This document shows, piece by piece, positions 43,579 through 54,192 of a stretch of 64,000 nucleotides of DNA; position 1 is the stretch's first letter; every line of letters begins with the position of its first letter. The stretch comes from an uncultured Aminicenantes bacterium (GTDB taxonomy: Bacteria; Acidobacteriota; Aminicenantia; UBA2199). Both the position numbers and the translations under genes were made by a program. The notes below the pieces were generated by a model that worked only from the letters and a program-made list of their open reading frames with translations, did not search any database and was not told the DNA's origin. Where the stretch lies: NCBI GenBank assembly GCA_965195285.1, contig CBDAFS010000062.1:32001-96000 (forward strand), read 5' to 3'.

Positions 43579-44919
43579 CTAAAAAGAGATTGAATGGTTT
43601 TTTACTATAGACAATCTGTGAACCTTTTTGATTTCATCAATATAGGATTTTTTTATATCAAGTTCCTTTGCAATTTTCGGCCATGTCGAAATAACATCGG
43701 TGATCTCTTTAACAATGGATCTATAAGAATCTATACGCTGATCAACACCGACTTTGTGAAGATCCTTTAACGTAAATTCATCTCTTTTACCATTAATGGT
43801 CATTTGATGTCGGTTTGTCCATTCCCCTTTGGGATTATATGAATAAATAACATCATAAGCTGGTGATAGTTTCCAATTGCCTGTTTTATCCATTAAAAAT
43901 GAGATATTTTTCGTATGGTCGTCCTGGTTTCGTGAAATGACATTAAATACCATTCGTCTGTATAGTTGTTCAATATCATATGGCGATAAATTAAGCTCAC
44001 GTAAAATCTGAAAAGCCTGTTCATATGAATAGGCTCCAGGGGAATTAAAATCAAAGTGAGATATTGCACATAAGGTTTGTAAATGAATTTTTTCGCCCTC
44101 TACTCTGTCAAAACGTTTTGTCATAAAATGATACCTGTTATTTTCTTTTAACAGTTCACAATCTGTCATATTGATTCCACAGGATTTTGCCAATTTACCA
44201 TACGCATATTCGATTTTTCCAAAACCTTCTGGATCCTCCAATGAATTATCTTTTATTCCGTCAAATTTTAAGATCCAGTACGAAAAGCCTTCAGGAGCTT
44301 TGACCTGGCCCGACCTTATTTCATTTGTATTTTCATTATATGCAATAACAGCTTTTGGCCTGTTTCCTCCTGCAGATGTACCAACACGGATAATATTAAG
44401 AAGTGCTTCAGAAGATGCAGATGTATTATCTATAAAATTAGTATTTAATCTGGATCTTTCATTTAGTACGGTTTGAGCCAACTCCAGGAGTTTTGAGACT
44501 TCAACCGGTACAGATTTATCAATATCTTTATTTAATATAGGTTTAAATTCTAATGCACCCATTCCCCTTTTCCCTGTATAACATAATCTTTCAATTGGAC
44601 TGAAAGTTTCAGGTGTTCTTCCTTCTCTTGCAAGCCATGAATCTATGATACTGTTCCCGAATTTATCCGGAAGAGAATCTGAGAGAAGCCCGGGTAATCC
44701 CTTAAAGGTATTTTTGGGAAGGTTTCTGAATTCAAAAGAAGGCCTTTTTCGTTTGATCGCTTCACTTAAAGGCATTGTGAGTGGTGAGAGGTTCAAATCC
44801 ATATTTAGAAATTTTGAATCAAATTCAAAAGTTGCATATTCTTTTTCGGCATTCCAGGAAACTGCACCAACAAGGTTTCCCCAGATATTTATATAAGCTA
44901 CATCAACTCTTTTTTCCAA
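43579..44919 (-). CDS. hipA: HipA family toxin kinase
   Basis: Couple_hipA-like N-terminus, GTSAGGNRPKA P-loop, WILKFD, NQDDHTKN, LSPAYD; TTG start after AGGAG. Confidence 0.94.
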   Translation of the reverse strand: MEKRVDVAYINIWGNLVGAVSWNAEKEYATFEFDSKFLNMDLNLSPLTMPLSEAIKRKRPSFEFRNLPKNTFKGLPGLLSDSLPDKFGNSIIDSWLAREGRTPETFSPIERLCYTGKRGMGALEFKPILNKDIDKSVPVEVSKLLELAQTVLNERSRLNTNFIDNTSASSEALLNIIRVGTSAGGNRPKAVIAYNENTNEIRSGQVKAPEGFSYWILKFDGIKDNSLEDPEGFGKIEYAYGKLAKSCGINMTDCELLKENNRYHFMTKRFDRVEGEKIHLQTLCAISHFDFNSPGAYSYEQAFQILRELNLSPYDIEQLYRRMVFNVISRNQDDHTKNISFLMDKTGNWKLSPAYDVIYSYNPKGEWTNRHQMTINGKRDEFTLKDLHKVGVDQRIDSYRSIVKEITDVISTWPKIAKELDIKKSYIDEIKKVHRLSIVKNHSISF

Positions 44920-44934
44920 ATTATAACTCCTATA

Positions 44935-45240
44935 TTACTTAACACTTTTTGAGGCCCTCTTCCTGGCCCTGCCTTTTAATTTTGCAAGCTGCAGAGGACT
45001 AATCCCCTGCTCAGGTAATATCGAATCGAGTTCATCAAGTTCCTTCAATGCTCTGAGTATCTGTATAAAAGTCAGCATACTAAAAGGTTTGCCCTTTTCA
45101 ACTTCCACAATTGTTGATCTGTTTAAGCCTGATAGCTTTGACAGATCCTTTTGCGAAATATTTTTTTCAAGCCTTTTTTGTTTTAAACGTCTACCGATCT
45201 CTTTTAATATTGCAAAATCAGTAAATCCATAAATACTCAT
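44935..45240 (-). CDS. HTH antitoxin (HipB-like, XRE)
   Basis: IGRRLKQKRLEKNISQKDLS...RSTIVEVEKG, ISPLQLAK...RKRA; directly upstream of hipA. Confidence 0.88.
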   Translation of the reverse strand: MSIYGFTDFAILKEIGRRLKQKRLEKNISQKDLSKLSGLNRSTIVEVEKGKPFSMLTFIQILRALKELDELDSILPEQGISPLQLAKLKGRARKRASKSVK

Positions 45241-45447
45241 AATGTCCCCCAAATCCATCATTTTTCTATAATTATGCCATTAATGATGGAAAATACCAAC
45301 ATATATATATGTATTCAAAGTGTGTTTTTTTCAACTTTTATTTAGGATTTAAAATTAAATTAACTATTTACCGAAATCTTGAAAGTAAAAAGAATATGCG
45401 CGTTTGTACCCTTTATCTCCATTTGAGTAATGAAATTCTTGAAGAAG

Positions 45448-45470
45448 TCAAGAAAGCAACGACCGTCCCC
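45448..45470 (+). repeat. Island motif copy
   Basis: TCAAGAAAGCAACGACCGTCCCC, 19/23 identical to the copy at 51172. Confidence 0.75.
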
Positions 45471-45599
45471 AATCCTTTCTAAAACCAATTCAAGAAAATA
45501 TTTTTTATCTTTTGAAGATTTAAATATCTTCTCCCCATTTATGCCCCTGTTCATGACATGGTGAAAGGCATCTTTGTAAGTAATTCTTGGGTGACGCAT
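45471..45599 (-). pseudogene. N-terminal fragment of REP-associated/Y1 HUH tyrosine transposase (RAYT)
   Basis: MRHPRITYKDAFHHVMNRGINGEKIF...DKKYFLEL; homology stops after ~40 codons, before the HUH motif. Confidence 0.85.
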
Positions 45600-45618
45600 A
45601 AAAAAAATATCAAATAGA

Positions 45619-45643
45619 TGTCATACTGTCAAGCAACGTCCCC
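45619..45643 (+). repeat. Island motif copy containing a minus-strand TTGACA
   Basis: TGTCATACTGTCAAGCAACGTCCCC; first 21 nt are 19/21 identical to 46400-46420. Confidence 0.75.
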
Positions 45644-45721
45644 ATTTCATTGGGTGGGTAAAACCAGAAAAATAAGGGTGGGTGCAAACGTGCAAATAGG
45701 CCTTTTTTTCTTTTAATCAAA

Positions 45722-45777
45722 TTTTCAGGTTTCAATGCACCGACTCCACTATTTTTTTTATAATGCTAAAATAAAAG
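45722..45777 (+). repeat. ~56-bp direct repeat, left of the lipoprotein gene
   Basis: CAGGTTTCAATGCACC...ATTTTTTTTATAATGCTAAAATAAAAG; partner at 46300-46357. Confidence 0.8.
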
Positions 45778-45867
45778 TCCCTCTTAAAGTTCATTTCTTC
45801 GTAGTCCACTTTCCTTTCTTTGTCTTTTGGGATATATTATGTGTAACAATTTTAAGGAGGAAGAAAA

Positions 45868-46287
45868 TTGAAGCCGAAACTTTTCACTATATTGCTTATT
45901 GTGGTTTTGATGAGTACGCTATTTCATCCAGGTTGTAAGACCGTAGAAGAATGCAGCTTCAATATCACCGGTATCTGGCAGGTCTCTATTACTATTACCG
46001 ACTGGTCAGCTACATGGACAGAAACTTTAACATTTATTGGGAGCACACTCAGTGGTGTGTCAACTGGCTTTAAGTACCAGCACGTAAATGTTCAAAACGG
46101 AACATATACAGTTACCAATTGTACAACCGTTCAATTCATTTTTAATTATTTGGATCTCGGGACACAATTGATTTGGATGTTTAATGGCAGTTCTACCTCA
46201 GAAAACACTATGAGCGGTACAGGCACCTACTATAATGACTGGAGTGGTTCCACATTGAGTCTTACCTGGACAGCCACAAGAACTTAA
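45868..46287 (+). CDS. Putative lipoprotein, small beta-rich domain
   Basis: AAGGAGG RBS, TTG start, signal peptide ending HPG-C, Thr/Gly/Trp-rich strands. Confidence 0.75.
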   Translation: MKPKLFTILLIVVLMSTLFHPGCKTVEECSFNITGIWQVSITITDWSATWTETLTFIGSTLSGVSTGFKYQHVNVQNGTYTVTNCTTVQFIFNYLDLGTQLIWMFNGSSTSENTMSGTGTYYNDWSGSTLSLTWTATRT

Positions 46288-46299
46288 TATATTAAAGTT

Positions 46300-46357
46300 T
46301 TTCCAGGTTTCGATGCACCTCCCCCAATCCATTTTTTTTATAATGCCAAAATGAAAG
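46300..46357 (+). repeat. ~56-bp direct repeat, right of the lipoprotein gene
   Basis: CAGGTTTCGATGCACC...ATTTTTTTTATAATGCCAAAATGAAAG. Confidence 0.8.
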
Positions 46358-46399
46358 ACGTGATCCTATTAACACACCGAGCATGGAGGTTTCCTAAAT

Positions 46400-46420
46400 T
46401 GTCACACTGTCAAGCACCGT
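46400..46420 (+). repeat. Island motif copy lacking the terminal CCCC
   Basis: TGTCACACTGTCAAGCACCGT. Confidence 0.7.
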
Positions 46421-46572
46421 TAAGCCTCTTACTTAATAAAAAGCAGGTAGAAGAAACACAAAAATTATGCTTGAAAAGTCAAACACAGATTTGACCCCTT
46501 TATATTGTATACGTCCCTTTTATCTTTTAATTTTAATTTCTAAAGTGTTATGATAAAAACAAAGTATTTAAT

Positions 46573-49500
46573 ATGATCAATAGAAGGAAAATTATTGAAA
46601 CCTTTGAACAAATATTTCTTTTAGAGCTGCATCATTTAAAAAATCGACCTGATCTAATATTTCAACAGTTGTATAATGAGCTGCAGTGGAAAGAAAGAGA
46701 AATTAAGGAAATTGTAGAAAAAGCAAGGAAAACATATTTACATTCCGGAAGATCATTTCTCCACCAGTACAGAAAACCCAAAGTTGAGGTAAATCATCTG
46801 ATGATGACCTTGGCAGGGCATAAAGATGCGGTGAATGCTTGTGTCTATTCCCCAAATGGGAAACACATTGTTTCAGCTAGCAGTGATAATACCTTAAAGA
46901 TCTGGGACAGTGAGAATGGCCAGGAAATTGCCAGACTAACAGAACATACAAGTAGGATAAAAGCATGCGCCTATTCTCCTGATGGTAAATGGATTGTTTC
47001 AGCAAGTACTGATAGAACCTTGAAGTTATGGAGCGGTGAGACATTTCAAAAAGTTTTCACACTGAAGGGACATTCAGGTGTTGTACACTCTTGTGCGTTT
47101 TCTCCGGATGGGAAGAAAGTGGTATCAGCAAGTAATGATTATATGTTAAAACTGTGGGAAACAGAGACAGGAGAGGAGCTAGCAACTCTGAAAGGGCATT
47201 CAAATTTAGTAATATCCTGTGCATTTTCACCGAATGGAAAAAGGATTGTGTCAGCTAGTTTTGATAGAACATTAAGAATCTGGGACGCTGAGACTGCCCA
47301 AGAATTAACGATATTATTAAAAAATACCAGATTGATATTTTCCTGTGCTTTTTCCCCTGATGGGAAAAAGATTATCTCATCATGTGATGATTCCACTTTA
47401 ATAGTTATAGATATTAAGACCGGCCAAACATTAGACGTATTAATCGGACATAATAAATTATCTGGTGCTGCTATATCTATGTCAGATACTGGTGGTGACC
47501 CATCTTTTTCCGGATGGATATTATCTTGTTCATATTCTCCTGATGGGAAAAGAATTGTTTCAGCTGGTTATGATGGAACCTTAAAAACCTGGGACGCTGA
47601 GACTGGCCAAGAATTAATGACTTTTAAAGAACATATAGGCCAGATAAATTTCTGTTCATACTCCCCTGATGGGAAAAGGATTATCTCAGCTGGTGCTGAT
47701 AACACAGTAAGGGTATGGGATTGTGAAATCTATAAAGAGAGAGAAATCAGGAGAGAATTAGCTATACTTAAAGGTCATAACTCGACTGTTAAGTCATGTG
47801 TTTATTCCCCTGATGGAAAAAGAATTATATCTGCAAGTCGTGATAATACCTTAAAAATCTGGGATAGTAAGACAGGGGAGGAGACACATACCCTAACTGG
47901 GCATACTGATTCTGTATGCTTCTGTTCATGGTCTCCAGATGGAAGAAGAATTATATTTGCAAGTGAAGATAAAACTTTGAAGATATGGGATGCAGAAACA
48001 GTAAAAGAAATTACCATACTAACAGGACACACAGGTGGGATAATAGCATGCGCCTATTCTCCTGATGGGAGAAGAATTATATTTGCATGTGAAGATACAA
48101 CCTTAAAAATCTGGGATAGTGCAACAGGGAAGAAGACACATACCCTAACTGGGCATACTGATTCTGTATGGTTCTGTTCATGGTCTCCTGATGGGAAAAG
48201 AATTGTATCTGCAAGTGAAGATAAAACGTTAAAGATATGGGATGCAGAAACAGGAAAGGAAATTACTACACTAACAGGACACACCGGTGGGATAATAGCA
48301 TGCGCCTATTCCCCTGATGGGAAAAGAATTGTTTCTGGAAGTAGAGATCTAGCCTTGAAGGTCTGGGATAGTGAGATTTTTATGGATCAAGCGACATTAA
48401 AAGGCCACATTGGAATGATAACTTCTTGCAATTTTTCACCAGATGGAAGAAGAATTATATCTTCAAGTACCGATAAAACCTTAAGGGTCTGGGATATTGA
48501 GAATTTTAAAGAATTGCTAACCTTAAGAGGACATGTTGATACAGTAACCTCTTGCAACTTTTCACCAGATGGAAGAAGAATTATATCTTCAAGTGACGAT
48601 AAAACCATAAGGATCTGGGATAATAAGAATGGTGAAGATTTAGTAATACCAATAGGACATACTGATGTGGTAGATGTCTGGGCTTATTCCCCAAATGGGA
48701 AACAAATTACATCTGGAAGTTTTGATAAAACCTTAAAGATCTGGGATGTAGATAGGGGAGAAATATTTTCTACACTAATTGGACATAATGATAAAATAAC
48801 GGCCTGTGCTTATTCCCCGGATGGGAAAAAAATAATCTCGGGTAGTCGTGATAATACTTTAAAAATTTGGGATAGTGAGACAGGGCGGGAAATCCATACC
48901 CTAACTGGGCATAGAGGTGAGGTGAATGCTTGTGTCTATTCCCCAAATGGGAAACACATTGTTTCAACTAGCGATGATAATAACTTAAAGATCTGGGATG
49001 CAGAAACAGGAAAGGAAATTACTACACTAACAGGACACACCGGTGGGATAATAGCATGCGCCTATTCTCCTGATGGGAGAAGAATTGTATCTGCAAGTCA
49101 AGATCAAACCTTAAAAATCTGGGATAGTAAGACTTTTGAGGAATTGCAAACATTAAGAGGTCATTTTGATGGAGTATACTCTTGTGATTTTTCCCCTGAT
49201 GGGAAAAAAATTATCTCAACAAGTGCTGATAAAACCATAAAAATATGGGATATTGAGAGAGGTAATGAGTTACTTACATTAATAGGATATTGGTTCCATA
49301 AAAATTCACTTTATGGGAAAAGAATGATTTCCGGACTTTCAGATGGCAGTGTTAATGATAAATTAAAGGTTTTGGATACAGAGACAGGAAGAGAGATTGT
49401 CACTCTTATAGGACATTCTGGACTTATATTAGATTGTGCTTGGTCTCCGGATGGGAAAAGAATTGTTTCTGGAAGTAGAGACCTAACCTTGAAGGTCTGG

Positions 49501-49635
49501 GACAGTGAAATAGGAGAGGAATTATTTATTTTTTATACTAGATATTATGTAAACAAATGCAATTTTTCTCCTGATGGAAAATCAATTGTAGCTGGGGATT
49601 ATAATGGGAATGTATATTTTCTTAAATTAGTATGA
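46573..49635 (+). CDS. WD40 repeat protein (~22 repeats) with short N-terminal helical segment
   Basis: 42-aa repeats GHxxxVxxCxYSPDGKRIxSxSxDxTLKIWD; no signal peptide and no P-loop. Confidence 0.95.
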   Translation: MINRRKIIETFEQIFLLELHHLKNRPDLIFQQLYNELQWKEREIKEIVEKARKTYLHSGRSFLHQYRKPKVEVNHLMMTLAGHKDAVNACVYSPNGKHIVSASSDNTLKIWDSENGQEIARLTEHTSRIKACAYSPDGKWIVSASTDRTLKLWSGETFQKVFTLKGHSGVVHSCAFSPDGKKVVSASNDYMLKLWETETGEELATLKGHSNLVISCAFSPNGKRIVSASFDRTLRIWDAETAQELTILLKNTRLIFSCAFSPDGKKIISSCDDSTLIVIDIKTGQTLDVLIGHNKLSGAAISMSDTGGDPSFSGWILSCSYSPDGKRIVSAGYDGTLKTWDAETGQELMTFKEHIGQINFCSYSPDGKRIISAGADNTVRVWDCEIYKEREIRRELAILKGHNSTVKSCVYSPDGKRIISASRDNTLKIWDSKTGEETHTLTGHTDSVCFCSWSPDGRRIIFASEDKTLKIWDAETVKEITILTGHTGGIIACAYSPDGRRIIFACEDTTLKIWDSATGKKTHTLTGHTDSVWFCSWSPDGKRIVSASEDKTLKIWDAETGKEITTLTGHTGGIIACAYSPDGKRIVSGSRDLALKVWDSEIFMDQATLKGHIGMITSCNFSPDGRRIISSSTDKTLRVWDIENFKELLTLRGHVDTVTSCNFSPDGRRIISSSDDKTIRIWDNKNGEDLVIPIGHTDVVDVWAYSPNGKQITSGSFDKTLKIWDVDRGEIFSTLIGHNDKITACAYSPDGKKIISGSRDNTLKIWDSETGREIHTLTGHRGEVNACVYSPNGKHIVSTSDDNNLKIWDAETGKEITTLTGHTGGIIACAYSPDGRRIVSASQDQTLKIWDSKTFEELQTLRGHFDGVYSCDFSPDGKKIISTSADKTIKIWDIERGNELLTLIGYWFHKNSLYGKRMISGLSDGSVNDKLKVLDTETGREIVTLIGHSGLILDCAWSPDGKRIVSGSRDLTLKVWDSEIGEELFIFYTRYYVNKCNFSPDGKSIVAGDYNGNVYFLKLV

Positions 49636-49919
49636 GTATATATATTTGAACACTAAATCTCAGGCCCAGTTGGAATTAAGTAAAGTATTTTTATCAAATA
49701 AAAAAAAGGGAAAAAAGGGGGACGTCCATTAAAAGTTCATTGTCAAGTAAATAGATCAATTTTTTTGATTTTTTTTCAAAATCGGTTTAAAATTTAATTC
49801 AATGGTAACGATTAGCCCTTCTCACGCCCGTGTTTTCTGTTATTTTTGGTTTGCAGGGTTAAAATTCCCGCACCAGTCATCCATATGGATTTGGAGAATA
49901 AAAATATGGAAATATATCC

Positions 49920-50150
49920 AAAAAAAATATTTATTCTCCTTTGCACCTTTTGGTGCTCCAGAAAACCTTTGGTGCCATCCCATGTCCATAATTTTGGGTT
50001 TGCAGATAACTTATGGCTCTTTGTCCAACCCCGATTGGCTCAAGGGATGGGCGAGAGTTACTAAACATTACCATTTGTAAAGGTTGCGGCAGTTTTCCAA
50101 TCAGATCTGGTGGTTCTTAGTCCAACCCCATTACTGGTTCACTGCCGCAG
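49920..50150 (-). ncRNA. Candidate IS110 bridge/seek RNA
   Basis: Stems 50141-50149/50085-50093 and 50044-50050/49975-49981, each enclosing an internal loop and a near-duplicated hairpin GGGGTTGGAC..AGA.CCA. Confidence 0.6.
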
Positions 50151-51054
50151 TCTGTTTTTTTATTGGTCCGAATATACGTTCAATATTATAGTCTTCTTGA
50201 TTTTTCATCACATAGTAAGAAGCACGAGCAATTTTATGAGCTAAAGCTTTTATTGCTACAATATTACTTGTTTTAGCAGCTTTTCTCTGGAAAAATCTCA
50301 TTGCATAGGGGCAATTTTTTTTCGCATGATTGGCTACTTCAACATAAGCCCAGGATAAATATTTATTACCATTCTTTCTGTTGTTTTCACCTTTCTTTTT
50401 TCCATTCGAGTATTTACCACTTGAAACACACCTGCTATAAGAGGAGTAATTTCCTACTTTTCTAAAACGATCGATTTCTCCTACTTCAAGCGAGATAGTG
50501 AGAGCAAGAATGTTCCCTATTCCGGGGATAGTCAATAGTTTTTGGAATTGGGACATAGGTTTAATAAAATCTAAAACCTTTTTTTCAATTTCTCTTATTC
50601 TCTCACTCAGAAAGATGATTGTTGCAATATTGGCCTGTATGGGCAGTCCTTTGCCGAACTAACATTAAACGCTTCCTCAGTAAATCTCTTATGGGCCTCT
50701 CTTTCTTAGGTTAAATATAACCAGTGGGTAATATCCCTAATCTTAATAACTCTGCTAAAAAAAAGCATCACCCTGGTCATTTACATACTTCTTGCCTTCA
50801 TACTGCTTGATTGCTGACGGATTTTCCAGATGGACTTTGTAACCATCTTCAATTAGAGGATCAACCAACCAGTACCAATTTTAAGTAGATTCTACAACAA
50901 CTCCTTCAATTTTCTCTTTAAAAGGCTGCAACTCCCCGGATATCAATGCATAATGATTGGGAATCTTCTTCCTGTAAATTCGCTTACCATCCTCATCTAC
51001 CATACCTAACACCGTGTTAGTAGAATGAAGATCCATACCAACATAATTTTTCAT
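50131..51054 (-). pseudogene. IS110 family transposase/recombinase pseudogene
   Basis: YVGMDLH, VVVEST*NWYW, ENP, TIPGIG, SSGK, NGNKYL; stops at 50883 and 50713, 1-nt deletion in the A run at 50757-50764, and an internal deletion near 50638. Confidence 0.93.
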
Positions 51055-51171
51055 AAAACACCTCCTTTATTAACTATTTGAAGGTATTTTACTACTTTTA
51101 TTTAATCATACAGAATGCCTTCTATATGATTATCAGGTCTTTGATTTAAGTATTTGTCCTTTTTTATAAAC

Positions 51172-51194
51172 TCAAGAATTCAAGCACCGTCCCC
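51172..51194 (+). repeat. Island motif copy at the right island boundary
   Basis: TCAAGAATTCAAGCACCGTCCCC followed by CGTCTT micro-duplications. Confidence 0.75.
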
Positions 51195-51220
51195 GTCTTC
51201 GTCTTCCGTCTTATTCTTTT

Positions 51221-53341
51221 TTATTTTTGTGGAGTTTTCTTTTTGGCTGTATAGACTCCTGAAGGTTGATAAATTTCGAAACCGGTTACGTTGCCTTCTT
51301 CATCGATTAAAAATTTCAGGTTGATCATTTTATATTGTTTAATGGAAAATTCGTCGCCCAGTTGAGGCTCCAGATCGAAAAGCGGTGCTCCAGGTAATAG
51401 CAGAGTAAGGCTTTTCCCTTTCAATTCCACGGTGAAGGTCTGGCCGCTAAAATCATACTGCCCGGTAAACTGTTTCAGGAACTCCGGATCGTAAAAACGG
51501 GCAGCCGGTTTCATTTTGAAAACAATCTCCTCAAGGGTCGCTTCAAAAGGAACTTCCAGAGCTGACACAAGACCTCTTACATTGGTTCTGAAAGTCAGCT
51601 TGGTATCCTGGAAACTATCATCGGATGCTTCAGCCCCATTAAAAGTCTCAAAATGCCAGTGGTTCAGTGGTGTCGAAATCCCATTGAAGGTGAAAGCAAG
51701 TTGCTTGTCTTTTAAAAAAACCCTTAATTCACCGTATCCAGGGTGAACGTAAGTGCCGGTATATTCCTTAAGTTTATGAGCAGGATGAGTCCCTTTTTTT
51801 TGCCGTACCAGTTTTTTCTGTTTGGCTTCCTTTTCAGTTTGTTCGCCCTTCCCCTTCTTATCGGCAGCTTCAGAGAGCCATTTGATTGGTTCCAATTCCA
51901 ACAGGCGGTCGATGGCATGACGGATAAGCAGCTCAGGCAGGCCAGTGCCATTCTTATTGGCGAGAACGACAAATCCGAAACCGTCCTGAGGAAGGAAACT
52001 CACCATGGCAGAAAAACCGTCAATGTTTCCACCATGATGAACCCGGTGATGGCCACGGTAATTATCGATAAACCAGCCCATACCATAGTCAGCCGGTGAG
52101 ATTTCGGGTCTTTCATAAGTATTGCCTGTCGGCATATGAACCAGGTGCATGTCACCGATGGTAGAGGTATTAATAATTTGTTTTCCCCCGAATTTGCCCC
52201 AGTTGATGTGAACCATCACCCAGTTGCTCATTTCATTGATACTGGAGTTAATGGAACCGGCAGGTCCGATATTGGTGATGTTACGAAATGGAATCTCTTC
52301 TATTTTTCCTTCTTTTTCCCTGTAGGGCAGAGCATAATCAGTATCCTTCTGGGAGTCCAGAACTGAAAAATTGGTTCTTTTCATGCCCAGGGGGGTGAGT
52401 ACATGGGTCCGGATGGCATTTTCCCAGTTCTTTTCGGTCAACACTTCAACCAGATAACCGGCGGTTAAAAACATCAGGTTATTATACTGAAACTTTTCGC
52501 GAAGGTCAGCTGTGGGTTTCAGATGGGCCAGCCGCTGAACAAACTCTTTCCGGCTGGCAGTAAAATTGTTGTACCACATCAGATCATGCCGCGGTAATCC
52601 TGAGCGATGGGTAACCAGATCCCGTGGAGTTAACCGTTCTCCTGCATCCTGATCATAGAGGCGAAACCAGGGTATGTAATTTCGAACCGGTTTATTCCAC
52701 TCCATTTTGCCCTGATCCACCAGAATACCCAGAGCAAAGGTTGTAAAAGCCTTGGAAGATGATCCTATAGCCAGCAGGGTATCGGCGGTCATGGGAAGTT
52801 TCTGTTTGATGTCTCTATAGCCAAATCCCCTGGCTAATATAATTTTATTTTCTTTTACTATGGCCATGGCAAGACCCGGGACCTTGAATGTCTTCAAAGC
52901 CTCTTCAATGACCTTATCAAAACCAGCCAGTCTCTTTTTGGCCCGGGTAACTGGATCAGATCTCTCCATACCAAAGGGAAAGGTTTGGCCGCCCTGGGTA
53001 AAATGTCCACTGATGGTTTTACCATTCTCGCTTAATTGGCCCTCAAAGCTCGGATTGCCAGGGATACCCTTGATAGTAAAACTGACATCTTGCAGGGTTA
53101 CCGTAATCTTCTCCAGAGCAATATCTTTGGCTTGCTGAAGGGGAATAGAGATATCTCCTTCCCACAATCCCTCTTTATCCTGCTGAAAGTCAATATTAAA
53201 ATTCATCGGTTGTTGAGGGATGTCAATCTTTCCTTCCCAATGACCGGAAATAGAAGTTTTCTGATCGTTTGTTGCACCAACCTGAATGACTAATAATATT
53301 GCCAGGCAAGCAATAAAAAATTGTTTATATGTTTTATTCAT
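51221..53341 (-). CDS. Secreted serine hydrolase (beta-lactamase/peptidase S12 family) with C-terminal DUF3471-like domains
   Basis: Signal peptide, SxxK (GSSSKAF), YxN (QYNN), HGG; AAGGAG RBS. Confidence 0.9.
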   Translation of the reverse strand: MNKTYKQFFIACLAILLVIQVGATNDQKTSISGHWEGKIDIPQQPMNFNIDFQQDKEGLWEGDISIPLQQAKDIALEKITVTLQDVSFTIKGIPGNPSFEGQLSENGKTISGHFTQGGQTFPFGMERSDPVTRAKKRLAGFDKVIEEALKTFKVPGLAMAIVKENKIILARGFGYRDIKQKLPMTADTLLAIGSSSKAFTTFALGILVDQGKMEWNKPVRNYIPWFRLYDQDAGERLTPRDLVTHRSGLPRHDLMWYNNFTASRKEFVQRLAHLKPTADLREKFQYNNLMFLTAGYLVEVLTEKNWENAIRTHVLTPLGMKRTNFSVLDSQKDTDYALPYREKEGKIEEIPFRNITNIGPAGSINSSINEMSNWVMVHINWGKFGGKQIINTSTIGDMHLVHMPTGNTYERPEISPADYGMGWFIDNYRGHHRVHHGGNIDGFSAMVSFLPQDGFGFVVLANKNGTGLPELLIRHAIDRLLELEPIKWLSEAADKKGKGEQTEKEAKQKKLVRQKKGTHPAHKLKEYTGTYVHPGYGELRVFLKDKQLAFTFNGISTPLNHWHFETFNGAEASDDSFQDTKLTFRTNVRGLVSALEVPFEATLEEIVFKMKPAARFYDPEFLKQFTGQYDFSGQTFTVELKGKSLTLLLPGAPLFDLEPQLGDEFSIKQYKMINLKFLIDEEGNVTGFEIYQPSGVYTAKKKTPQK

Positions 53342-53391
53342 ATCACATCTCCTTAACATTATTGTCAATTTACTATTTTTGATATTAATAT

Positions 53392-54192
53392 CTAATAAAC
53401 CAGCATGCTCAAATAGGCCACCACCTGGTTGTAATCACCGCTGACCTTACCGGAATGGGTATACTCCACGATTTCAGTATGAGTGGCCCCGGCCTCCAGG
53501 GCAGCTTTGAGCATGACGACCGTTGCAGACATGCCACACATGCTGATACGCCTCTCTACAACCACCTCATATAATCCCTCCGGGTCCAGGGCGGATATTT
53601 TTTCAATGGCCCGGTGATCCTCTTTTTCAGCGGTTCCGGCTTCGATATAATGACTCATATCGGTTGAGGCAACCATTAAAACCGAAGGTTGAGTTTTCAG
53701 GCAATCGCCAATTTCCCTTCCCGCCTGAATCAATCTATCTATCTCCAGGGAGGCAACCATGATGGGTAGGATCCGGGCACGGGGATTCAGGTACTGAATG
53801 AAGGGGACCTGAACTTCCAGGGAATGCTCTTCCAGGCCAGCCTGACTATCAATGGTAAAAACCTCACTGTTTTCGACCAACCTTGATCTCAAATCGTCAT
53901 CAATCTCACAATCCCCCAGGGGCGTATTCCAGTGGTCATGGCCATCAATGATTAAAGGCTCTCCAAGGCCCCTGTGATTGACACCGATAATGATCACCGA
54001 ATCGGGGATGTCAACCAGGCCAAATCCCTTTCCCGCACAACTCCCGGAATACACATATCCGGCATGGGGTGAAACCAGACCCACTACTTTTTTCCTGGTA
54101 TCTGAGAATTGAATGAGCTGATCGAGCTCAGCCCGGAGCGCTTGCCCATCACCCGGATAAAATATCCCGGCCACAGACGCTTTTCTGATCAT
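53392..54192 (-). CDS. amrB: AmmeMemoRadiSam system protein B (MEMO1 family)
   Basis: RKASVAGIFYP, PHAGYVYSG, EHSLEVQVPF, ASTDMSHY, SMCG. Confidence 0.95.
   Translation of the reverse strand: MIRKASVAGIFYPGDGQALRAELDQLIQFSDTRKKVVGLVSPHAGYVYSGSCAGKGFGLVDIPDSVIIIGVNHRGLGEPLIIDGHDHWNTPLGDCEIDDDLRSRLVENSEVFTIDSQAGLEEHSLEVQVPFIQYLNPRARILPIMVASLEIDRLIQAGREIGDCLKTQPSVLMVASTDMSHYIEAGTAEKEDHRAIEKISALDPEGLYEVVVERRISMCGMSATVVMLKAALEAGATHTEIVEYTHSGKVSGDYNQVVAYLSMLVY

Follow-up and report, generated by a model that had tools for sequence, protein, structure and literature searches.

The closest described relatives of the elements treated here are RAYT-like genes flanked by inverted repeats, which Di Nocera, De Gregorio and Rocco (2013; PMC3733652) named TIRYTs, the units as a whole being called TIRtrons. 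According to the text of that paper, the majority type of end has the consensus GGGGWSAS, and end families occur as single, dimeric and grouped copies, with the acidobacterium Koribacter versatilis among the examples. The text of Quentin (2018; PMC6006769) places most TIRYTs in subclass 2.1 of TnpA-Y1, with a C-terminal DnaA_C-like helix-turn-helix, and its abstract ties orientation bias to the replication strand for IS200/IS605-type elements. The groups of RAYTs are described in Bertels (2017; PMC5581495), whose text, as far as it goes, has no ends of the present type. In this study, we analyzed a stretch of 64,000 nucleotides (nt) from an uncultured Aminicenantes bacterium (contig CBDAFS010000062.1, positions 32,001 to 96,000; hereafter the window), in which a short motif recurs in one orientation between unrelated genes. 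An earlier note on this DNA had taken the motif for the recombination site of an integron-like gene-capture system driven by a RAYT-type HUH enzyme. Our results point instead to the motif being the terminal inverted repeat (TIR) of TIRtrons, whose end units are probably mobile in trans. The region read was 45000-51600 of the window, with its open reading frames (ORFs) listed.

The genome to which the window belongs (G000; 3.28 Mb in 62 contigs, the window being C62:32001-96000) was searched with a 26-nt weight matrix derived from 47 of 64 seed copies (at most 2 mismatches, both preceding 8-mers agreeing at no fewer than 5 places), with a threshold score of at least 14 and the reversed sequence as control. 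This gave 95 matches in the genome and 3 in the control. At a score of at least 20 the figures were 61 and 0, and a 14-mer search allowing at most 1 mismatch gave 30 and 0. Within the window, both strands of which were scanned, exactly four sites reach 14, all of them on the + strand, namely the units of subfamilies f, e (twice) and g in Table 1. The recurring co-oriented motif is therefore real. As the earlier note had it, the motif is confined to the array as far as the window is concerned, but in the genome it is widely dispersed. Two further copies that it had listed, at 45725 and 46303, fall below the threshold (45722-45747 and 46300-46325 in Table 1). Both sit in a direct repeat of 55-58 nt with 83% identity, which aligns with copies in two related genomes, and to judge from these alignments they are genuine, decayed copies of subfamily b. 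Among the related ends that it had proposed, the one at 46487 (AGATTTGACCCC) proved to be the end of a second type, T2, and the inverted one at 49717 (GGGGGACGT) the end of a 112-nt repeat unit, whereas no link was found for the one at 46511 (ACGTCCC). Beyond that list, the array holds two units of a further type, m, at about 45760-45781 and at 46340-46366.

On six contigs, inverted motif copies about 970 nt apart delimit elements of 980-989 base pairs (bp), each with a single ORF of about 300 amino acids (aa). A tblastn search located 19 loci in the genome, which comprise eight full-length copies (C9, C12, C15, C21, C26, C27, C49 and C50), shorter relatives and a fragment in the window. The proteins of the full-length copies are 48-61% identical to that of C26, and the C21 copy is broken by one TGA and one TAG. 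Shorter, clade-II transposase-like genes lie on C3, C14, C30, C31, C46, C47, C61 and C8. No target-site duplications were found at the 8 full elements, the longest shared words being 3-6 nt against a null mean of 4.3.

The element protein matches Pfam Y1_Tnp (PF01797) with E 6.6e-9, and the two histidines of the HUH motif (H59 and H61) and Y118 are invariant in all seven aligned paralogs. With 65.4 and 54.1 bits, it does not reach the cut-off of 80 for the NCBIfam RAYT family REP_Tyr_transpos. In a Foldseek search, its AlphaFold model (pLDDT 79, pTM 0.76) comes closest to 4er8_A (E 2e-7, TMt 0.73), a structure of E. coli TnpA-REP in complex with a REP hairpin; the IS608 and ISDra2 transposases rank next. 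When the tail, the last 88 residues, was modelled alone (pLDDT 87.5), a structural search independent of Foldseek returned DnaA domain IV as all four top matches (Z 7.8-8.1, the next at 5.9; rmsd 2.1-3.3 over 77-83 residues). Foldseek also puts DnaA domain IV first for the tail, with a non-significant E-value, and a profile search of the tail against the PDB sequences gave nothing meaningful. The elements are members of the TIRYT/TIRtron class, subclass 2.1, a known and little-studied kind. Thus the tie that the earlier note saw between the motif and a RAYT-type HUH enzyme is borne out by the Y1_Tnp genes that the motif flanks and by the fold match to 4er8. It was also right that the enzyme is absent in intact form from the array, which holds a fragment of 41 codons, and that intact copies lie elsewhere in the genome, in trans. 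As for RAYT-like genes near the motif, six of the eight full-length elements carry inverted motif copies at a spacing of 980-989 nt, and the elements on C9 and C49 have inverted ends as well.

Each end unit is 26 nt long: the core CACCGTC[C/A]CC is preceded by two direct repeats, each of about 8 nt. The core is common to all subfamilies and the repeats are subfamily-specific: within an element they agree at the two ends, and from element to element they vary, as in C21 and C27 (ATGTCAAA/ATGTCAAG), C49 (AAGTAATA/AAGTAAGG), C15 (ATACAAGN/TTACAAG) and C9 (AATCAAAAA/ACAAAAG). The elements start with GGGGACGGTG or GGTGACGGTG and finish with its reverse complement. GGGGWSAS is matched exactly by subfamilies c and d (GGGGTGAC) and by clade II (GGGGTCAG), and most clade-I ends (GGGGACGG) are one base off, at position 7. 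The clade-II ends, which are of the ...TGACCCC type, comprise the T2 end (11 copies in the genome against 2 in the control) and the m unit (43 against 19 at one mismatch), the latter flanking the clade-II genes of C3, C46 and C61. The non-palindromic nature of the motif, as described before, is supported by single-strand folding, in which six of the seven single units of the window reach 0 to -0.8 kcal/mol, values that shuffled sequences match. Among the window units, a hairpin (a 6-bp stem, -3.4 kcal/mol) is seen in the T2 unit alone, and 9 of 200 shuffles fold equally well. GTAG is absent from the units. At 14 of the 52 best ends (score of at least 24), the last 1-14 nt of the end and 5-10 nt of flank are repeated in tandem, compared with 50 of 1815 other GTC[CA]CC sites. 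Some full elements have longer doublings, of 20-40 nt, at one of their ends, in G000 (C12 and C50) as well as in the relatives G001, G002 and G017. Such stutters may arise when the end is nicked in a staggered way and then filled in.

Once the ends of full elements are removed, 79 solo units remain, and 74 of them lie outside ORFs of at least 120 aa, even though such ORFs span 89% of the genome; the other five lie inside. The genes that flank them occur in all four combinations of orientation (25, 14, 11 and 16 cases), with 8 units at contig edges. Another unit is found within 5 kb of 62 of the 79, against an expectation of 21%, and an inverted partner within 260 nt of 12. One may ask whether these units are pure wreckage, that is, immobile remains of deleted full elements in an array that is an insertion-sequence graveyard. 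There is one clear truncated element in the window (45471-45643), the unit at C15:27934 has the inner sequence of the end of the C49 element, transposase fragments adjoin units at C15:113 kb and C46:16 kb, and the IS110 copy of the array is dead. However, the homology among most solo copies of one subfamily ends sharply after 26-55 nt instead of running on to ragged inner lengths, the exceptions being a few truncated elements and inverted pairs of about 85-90 nt, which recur in subfamilies b and k. In addition, subfamilies without any full element have at least six copies, and random decay is not expected to leave a strand bias. We therefore consider pure wreckage unlikely.

The strictly intergenic placement, together with the conservation of the core throughout the bacterial family and the divergence of the paralogs, which are not near-identical, would also suit a host function. 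The units would then be retained because they serve as binding sites or transcript signals, a role proposed for REPs, and the relatives of the transposase would be domesticated. Yet the C21 copy is a full one and is broken, the 92% identity of the truncated copy in the window points to recent copying, the units follow no orientation rule relative to genes, and Rfam and tRNA scans of the array region gave no match. An explanation by host function is accordingly very unlikely.

In 59 of 80 matches, the C-rich strand of the unit lies on the strand of negative GC skew. Neighbouring pairs within 5 kb are co-oriented in 32 cases and opposite in 12; this exceeds 50% (p 0.004) but is no greater than the 74:26 strand bias predicts (p 0.16). 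Therefore, the co-orientation seen in the window needs no local mechanism. Clusters of pure orientation are found elsewhere too, on C31 (9/9) and C41 (5/5), and the units of the C31 cluster sit between ordinary genes, namely those for a flavin reductase, an ornithine cyclodeaminase and an ExbD-like protein.

We propose, with a probability of about 0.7, that the motif is the TIR of TIRtrons, that the end units are mobile in trans, and that the genes in the array are passengers of an unstable spacer. In such a mechanism, the DnaA-like tail would read the subfamily-specific repeats, while the HUH/Tyr site would nick the conserved core or its immediate surroundings where the replication fork leaves the DNA single-stranded. 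The inverted ends of an element, or of a miniature pair, would anneal into a stem that takes the place of the REP hairpin. End units, whether alone, paired or with the gene, would then be copied in trans to new intergenic sites, as RAYTs do with REPs and REPINs, and a strand bias of this copying would yield the co-orientation. Genes that come to lie inside an array would be carried along and not captured as cassettes.

Several observations weigh against this proposal. Cleavage, binding and movement by the TIRYTs of this genome are predicted activities, and the TIRYT/TIRtron literature, as represented by the text of PMC3733652 and PMC6006769, contains no biochemical test of any TIRYT. In 67 of the 79 solo units there is no inverted core within 260 nt, so that the hairpin or panhandle needed by a Y1 enzyme cannot form at them, and the spread of partnerless single units is left unexplained by the proposed mechanism. 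When the strand bias is counted by clusters it is non-significant (17 against 8 with 7 ties, p 0.11). The DnaA-like tail of the element protein gets no Pfam match, and its divergence does not follow that of the repeats (Spearman rho about 0 over 21 paralog pairs). None of the full-length elements in this assembly, which is 95% complete, belongs to subfamily b, f or g. Queries of 15-20 kb around six clusters revealed, in three congeners, neither an empty nor a filled site for any single unit, the contigs breaking at the repeats. As to the observation of the motif itself, a 14-mer search of the window alone (at most 3 mismatches) gave 5 matches with 3.31 expected, a number that 27 of 100 shuffles reach; since this is within chance, the genome-wide counts and the weight matrix were used instead.

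At least nine repeat units of several subfamilies make up the mosaic of the array, together with one truncated element, genes for a lipoprotein and a WD40 protein, and a dead IS110 (Table 1). From left to right the units follow one another as f, e, b, m, b, m, e, T2 and g. The picture is one of standard repeat composites interspersed with other DNA, which resembles the BIME clusters of REPs.

Table 1. Features of the array and their positions in the window.
Feature	Positions	Strand	Basis
Strain-variable segment holding the whole array	45355..51220	.	Breakpoints relative to X21, X18, G020 and G002
Solo end unit, subfamily f (core unit 45445-45470)	45416..45470	+	Matrix 26.8; 59-nt unit 85-86% identical to G000:C24:7016-7074 and C45:11890-11944
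Truncated TIRtron: right end (subfamily e, 45618-45643) and transposase codons 1-41 (45599 down to 45477)	45471..45643	-	Matrix 36.2
Decayed inverted pair (miniature element), subfamily b; right arm 45722-45747	45668..45747	+	Right arm matrix 11.6; aligns with intact GGGGACGGTGGGT...CACCATCCCC pairs in G003:C460 and G002:C144
Decayed end unit, subfamily m (clade-II type, ...GACCTGACCC)	45760..45781	+	Alignment with copies in G002, G003 and G000:C24
Small lipoprotein-like gene, 139 aa, cargo between two b+m composites	45868..46287	+	ORF
Second b arm, degenerate	46300..46325	+	Direct repeat of 45722-45777 (83%); matrix <6
Second subfamily-m end unit	46340..46366	+	Alignment
Decayed subfamily-e end unit	46399..46424	+	Matrix 16.3; b-m-e order recurs in G003:C460
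T2 end unit (GTCAAAcacagaTTTGACCCC)	46475..46498	+	97% identical to end of transposase-like gene element, G000:C31:41107-41736
WD40-repeat gene, 1020 aa, cargo	46573..49635	+	Pfam WD40 E 3e-230, 20 stretches; 126-nt tandem periodicity
112-nt repeat unit ending in inverted GGGGGACGT	49713..49824	-	91% identical to G000:C62:135479-135590
IS110-family pseudogene and non-coding tail	49830..51054	-	Pfam Transposase_20 E 6.5e-11 (141-aa piece)
Solo end unit, subfamily g	51169..51194	+	Matrix 37.3; 94-97% identical to G000:C15:127367-127397 and C31:40707-40735
Stuttered junction CGTCTT CGTCTT CCGTCTT, between last unit and stop codon of next gene	51195..51220	+	Tandem repeat over end/flank junction

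Comparison among strains showed that the array varies as a whole, as had been suggested before. In a 39.6-kb contig from run X21 (depth 32), position 45354 is joined to 51221 with 52 other letters between, and 5866 nt are skipped. On this contig, hipBA differs at 84 of 1855 nt and the gene of the PF00144 family on the other side at 6 of 2180 nt. In run X18, the homology likewise ends at 45354 and restarts at 51221. In G020, which belongs to another genus, the homology of hipBA (88% identical) ends at 45350, and in G002 that of the right-hand gene begins at 51224. These shared breakpoints define the variable segment as 45355-51220, almost exactly the range that the earlier note had delimited. 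In contrast to its prediction that strains would break exactly at the CCCC of the motif, the edges lie 91 nt ahead of the first 26-nt unit (61 nt ahead of the 55-nt f unit) and 26 nt past the last unit. Relative to the congener G001, whose flanking gene is 73% identical, the whole of 43588-53398 is missing, and the motif is at neither edge. Exact-pattern scans of metagenome contigs for the gene beside the array, which sought a short allele, gave 0 matches.

These breakpoints bear directly on integron-like capture, in which TIRYTs acting in trans would cut and rejoin DNA at the core, and circles of cargo plus one end unit would insert beside resident units. Some features of the locus fit such a scheme. 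Each module of the window, read from left to right, closes with a + strand unit, and the array as a whole is absent from the contig of a related strain. The lipoprotein gene lies between two direct b+m composites, and pairs that stand 14-20 nt apart elsewhere (b-e in X1 and X18, T2-g at G000:C31) are parted here by cargo. The core is common to all subfamilies, and the clusters on C31 and C41 are orientation-pure as well. On the other hand, the strain breakpoints (45350-45354 and 51221-51224) are away from the unit ends (45470 and 51194), the array has neither an intact enzyme gene nor a fixed platform, its cargo genes lie on both strands, and genome-wide the flanking genes occur in all four orientations. 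The co-orientation stays within the strand bias, and the C31 units, as said, lie between ordinary genes. G003:C460, which has b-m-e minus the lipoprotein gene, is another locus and no empty site. We thus regard capture as very unlikely. The same is true of a related version, which has little chance of being right, in which the core is the crossover point and TIRYTs in trans join co-oriented units, moving cargo plus one unit as single-stranded circles. Were it true, the clusters would be HUH-driven gene-shuffling arrays, an analogue of integrons on a different nuclease fold, and the stutters would be joining scars. The central claim of the earlier note, that the motifs are recombination sites of an integron-like capture system, is hence not supported: the motif forms the TIR of the enzyme's own element of about 985 bp, its 79 solo copies have neighbours in mixed orientation, and its matrix matches, which on the model of the note should cluster at the boundaries of accessory genes, lie between ordinary genes genome-wide.

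Two sets of candidate locus variants were rejected. G003:C460 had been considered as a lipoprotein-free version of the b-m-e stretch of the window, but its upstream genes differ and it is a separate locus. The joints 45731>46397 and 45738>46394 (X1 and X18) and 46500>51166 (X1) have short sides of 29-40 letters and were read as other repeat copies. The last of them matches the paralogous site G000:C31, where the T2-g pair stands 20 nt apart. At that site (G000:C31:40707-41830), the clade-II transposase-like gene has an outer g-type unit on its left side, with the T2 unit 20 nt inward, and a T2 unit with a 16-nt stutter at its right end.

The truncated element consists of the final 173 nt of an element of the C12 type and has the sole copy of the enzyme gene within the array. 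Over 171 nt it aligns at 92% identity with the end of the intact element at G000:C12:67750-67920, and it matches in tblastn over aa 1-41 at 61% identity. The lipoprotein-like gene has no Pfam or NCBIfam family and gives 13 tblastn matches over 9 other contigs; its 3' half together with the b arm is 89% identical to G000:C24:8898-9128. Such genes adjoin end units unusually often in this genome (C26:1190-1621, C24:8856-9077, C45:12059-12406, C15:50968-51123 and C54:152-986), and in the C24 case the 3' half alone survives, straight after a d-type unit. The WD40 gene consists of about 20 repeats of 126 nt, some pairs of which are 83-88% identical in DNA, with related repeats at C36:20360-26837; no family was assigned to the N-terminus of about 75 aa of its protein. 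The frame of the IS110 copy is broken by stops and shifts, and there is no second copy in the genome. Just inside the g unit, the 56 nt at 51102-51157 are 89% identical to G000:C45:714-769, which itself lies just outside an f-like unit, and constitute another short dispersed repeat.

The genes on both sides of the array have peculiarities of their own. On the left, hipA/hipB (43579-45261, with homology over 43583-45350) is 88% identical in DNA to G020:C269, compared with 65-76% for neighbouring chromosomal genes in relatives. This suggests that hipBA is a toxin-antitoxin module that moves horizontally and whose edge, at 45350-45354, is sharp. On the right, the gene at 51221-53368, which encodes PF00144 (beta-lactamase family) and DUF3471 domains, has a second N-terminal copy in G002:C42, 86% identical and about 3 kb away, and in the same contig about 1.2 kb with a T2-like stretch separates the PF00144 gene from its neighbour. 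Upstream of the window, at G000:C62:10097 and C62:18397, there are direct copies of a stretch like the 3' end of a tRNA, each followed by a b-type unit; the roughly 8.3 kb between them resembles an island that has integrated. Three comparable repeats, tRNA-like and accompanied by e-type units, occur at C41:39517, 40640 and 48614, and G003:C185 joins the sequences that flank about 9.9 kb there.

A search of 41 genomes, one of them G000, gave TIRYT homologs (E <= 1e-20) in 30; of 24 genomes from the same family, 20 have them. Copies of the exact core AAGCACCGTCMCC were found in 17 of the 41, G000 among them, and every one of the 17 is from that family, where 16 of the 24 other genomes have the core; it reaches 31 copies at most, against 0-3 in controls. 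In G001, G002, G010, G017 and G022, the core flanks TIRYT genes. Many contigs of the relatives start about 40-50 nt ahead of a core copy, and these starts look like assembly breaks at a repeat.

From the scientific point of view, TIRYTs are widespread relatives of RAYTs, and this genome offers a compact natural series for studying how HUH/Y1 enzymes act on inverted ends that are not hairpins. The series comprises about eighty dispersed units and fifteen paralogs, every one of which has an individual end variant built around a common core. The strand bias fits single-strand chemistry, and the stuttered junctions may mark the cut site. For annotation, the elements make sense of an otherwise puzzling patchwork of short repeats and gene fragments, and they explain many contig breaks in related genomes. 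These data alone do not reveal a new gene-capture system.

When the locus is set beside known systems, it shares with integrons the short co-oriented sites that separate unrelated genes and the strain-variable array. In contrast to the locus, integrons (IntI, attI/attC) have a tyrosine recombinase of another fold, a fixed platform, folded attC sites and a uniform cassette orientation, none of which is seen here. The IS200/IS605 elements (IS608, ISDra2) have in common with the present ones the HUH/Y1 fold, the lack of target duplication and the orientation bias linked to the replication strand; however, their left and right ends differ from each other and have subterminal hairpins without inverted repeats, whereas the ends here are inverted and lack hairpins. 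The RAYT/REPtron/REPIN systems (E. coli TnpA-REP, 4er8; Pseudomonas REPINs) are closer. Their catalytic domain matches in fold, and their inverted short repeats likewise bracket the gene and fill intergenic DNA as singles, pairs and clusters. They differ in that the units here are non-palindromic and without GTAG, the protein falls under the NCBIfam RAYT cut-off, the genome carries many copies, and an extra DNA-binding tail is predicted. The TIRtrons, as described in the text of PMC3733652 and PMC6006769, agree with the present elements in having an HUH/Y1 RAYT-like gene bounded by TIRs instead of REP hairpins, ends that start with GGGG and occur as singles, dimers and groups, and a DnaA_C-like C-terminal helix-turn-helix. 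The two-repeat-plus-core anatomy, the strand bias and the stuttered junctions of the ends do not appear in that text, figures and supplements aside. In contrast to the described TIRtrons, most clade-I ends here are off the consensus at position 7, and the copy number is unusual: a single genome of 3.3 Mb carries 8 full-length and 7 shorter paralogs, and each has an end variant of its own.

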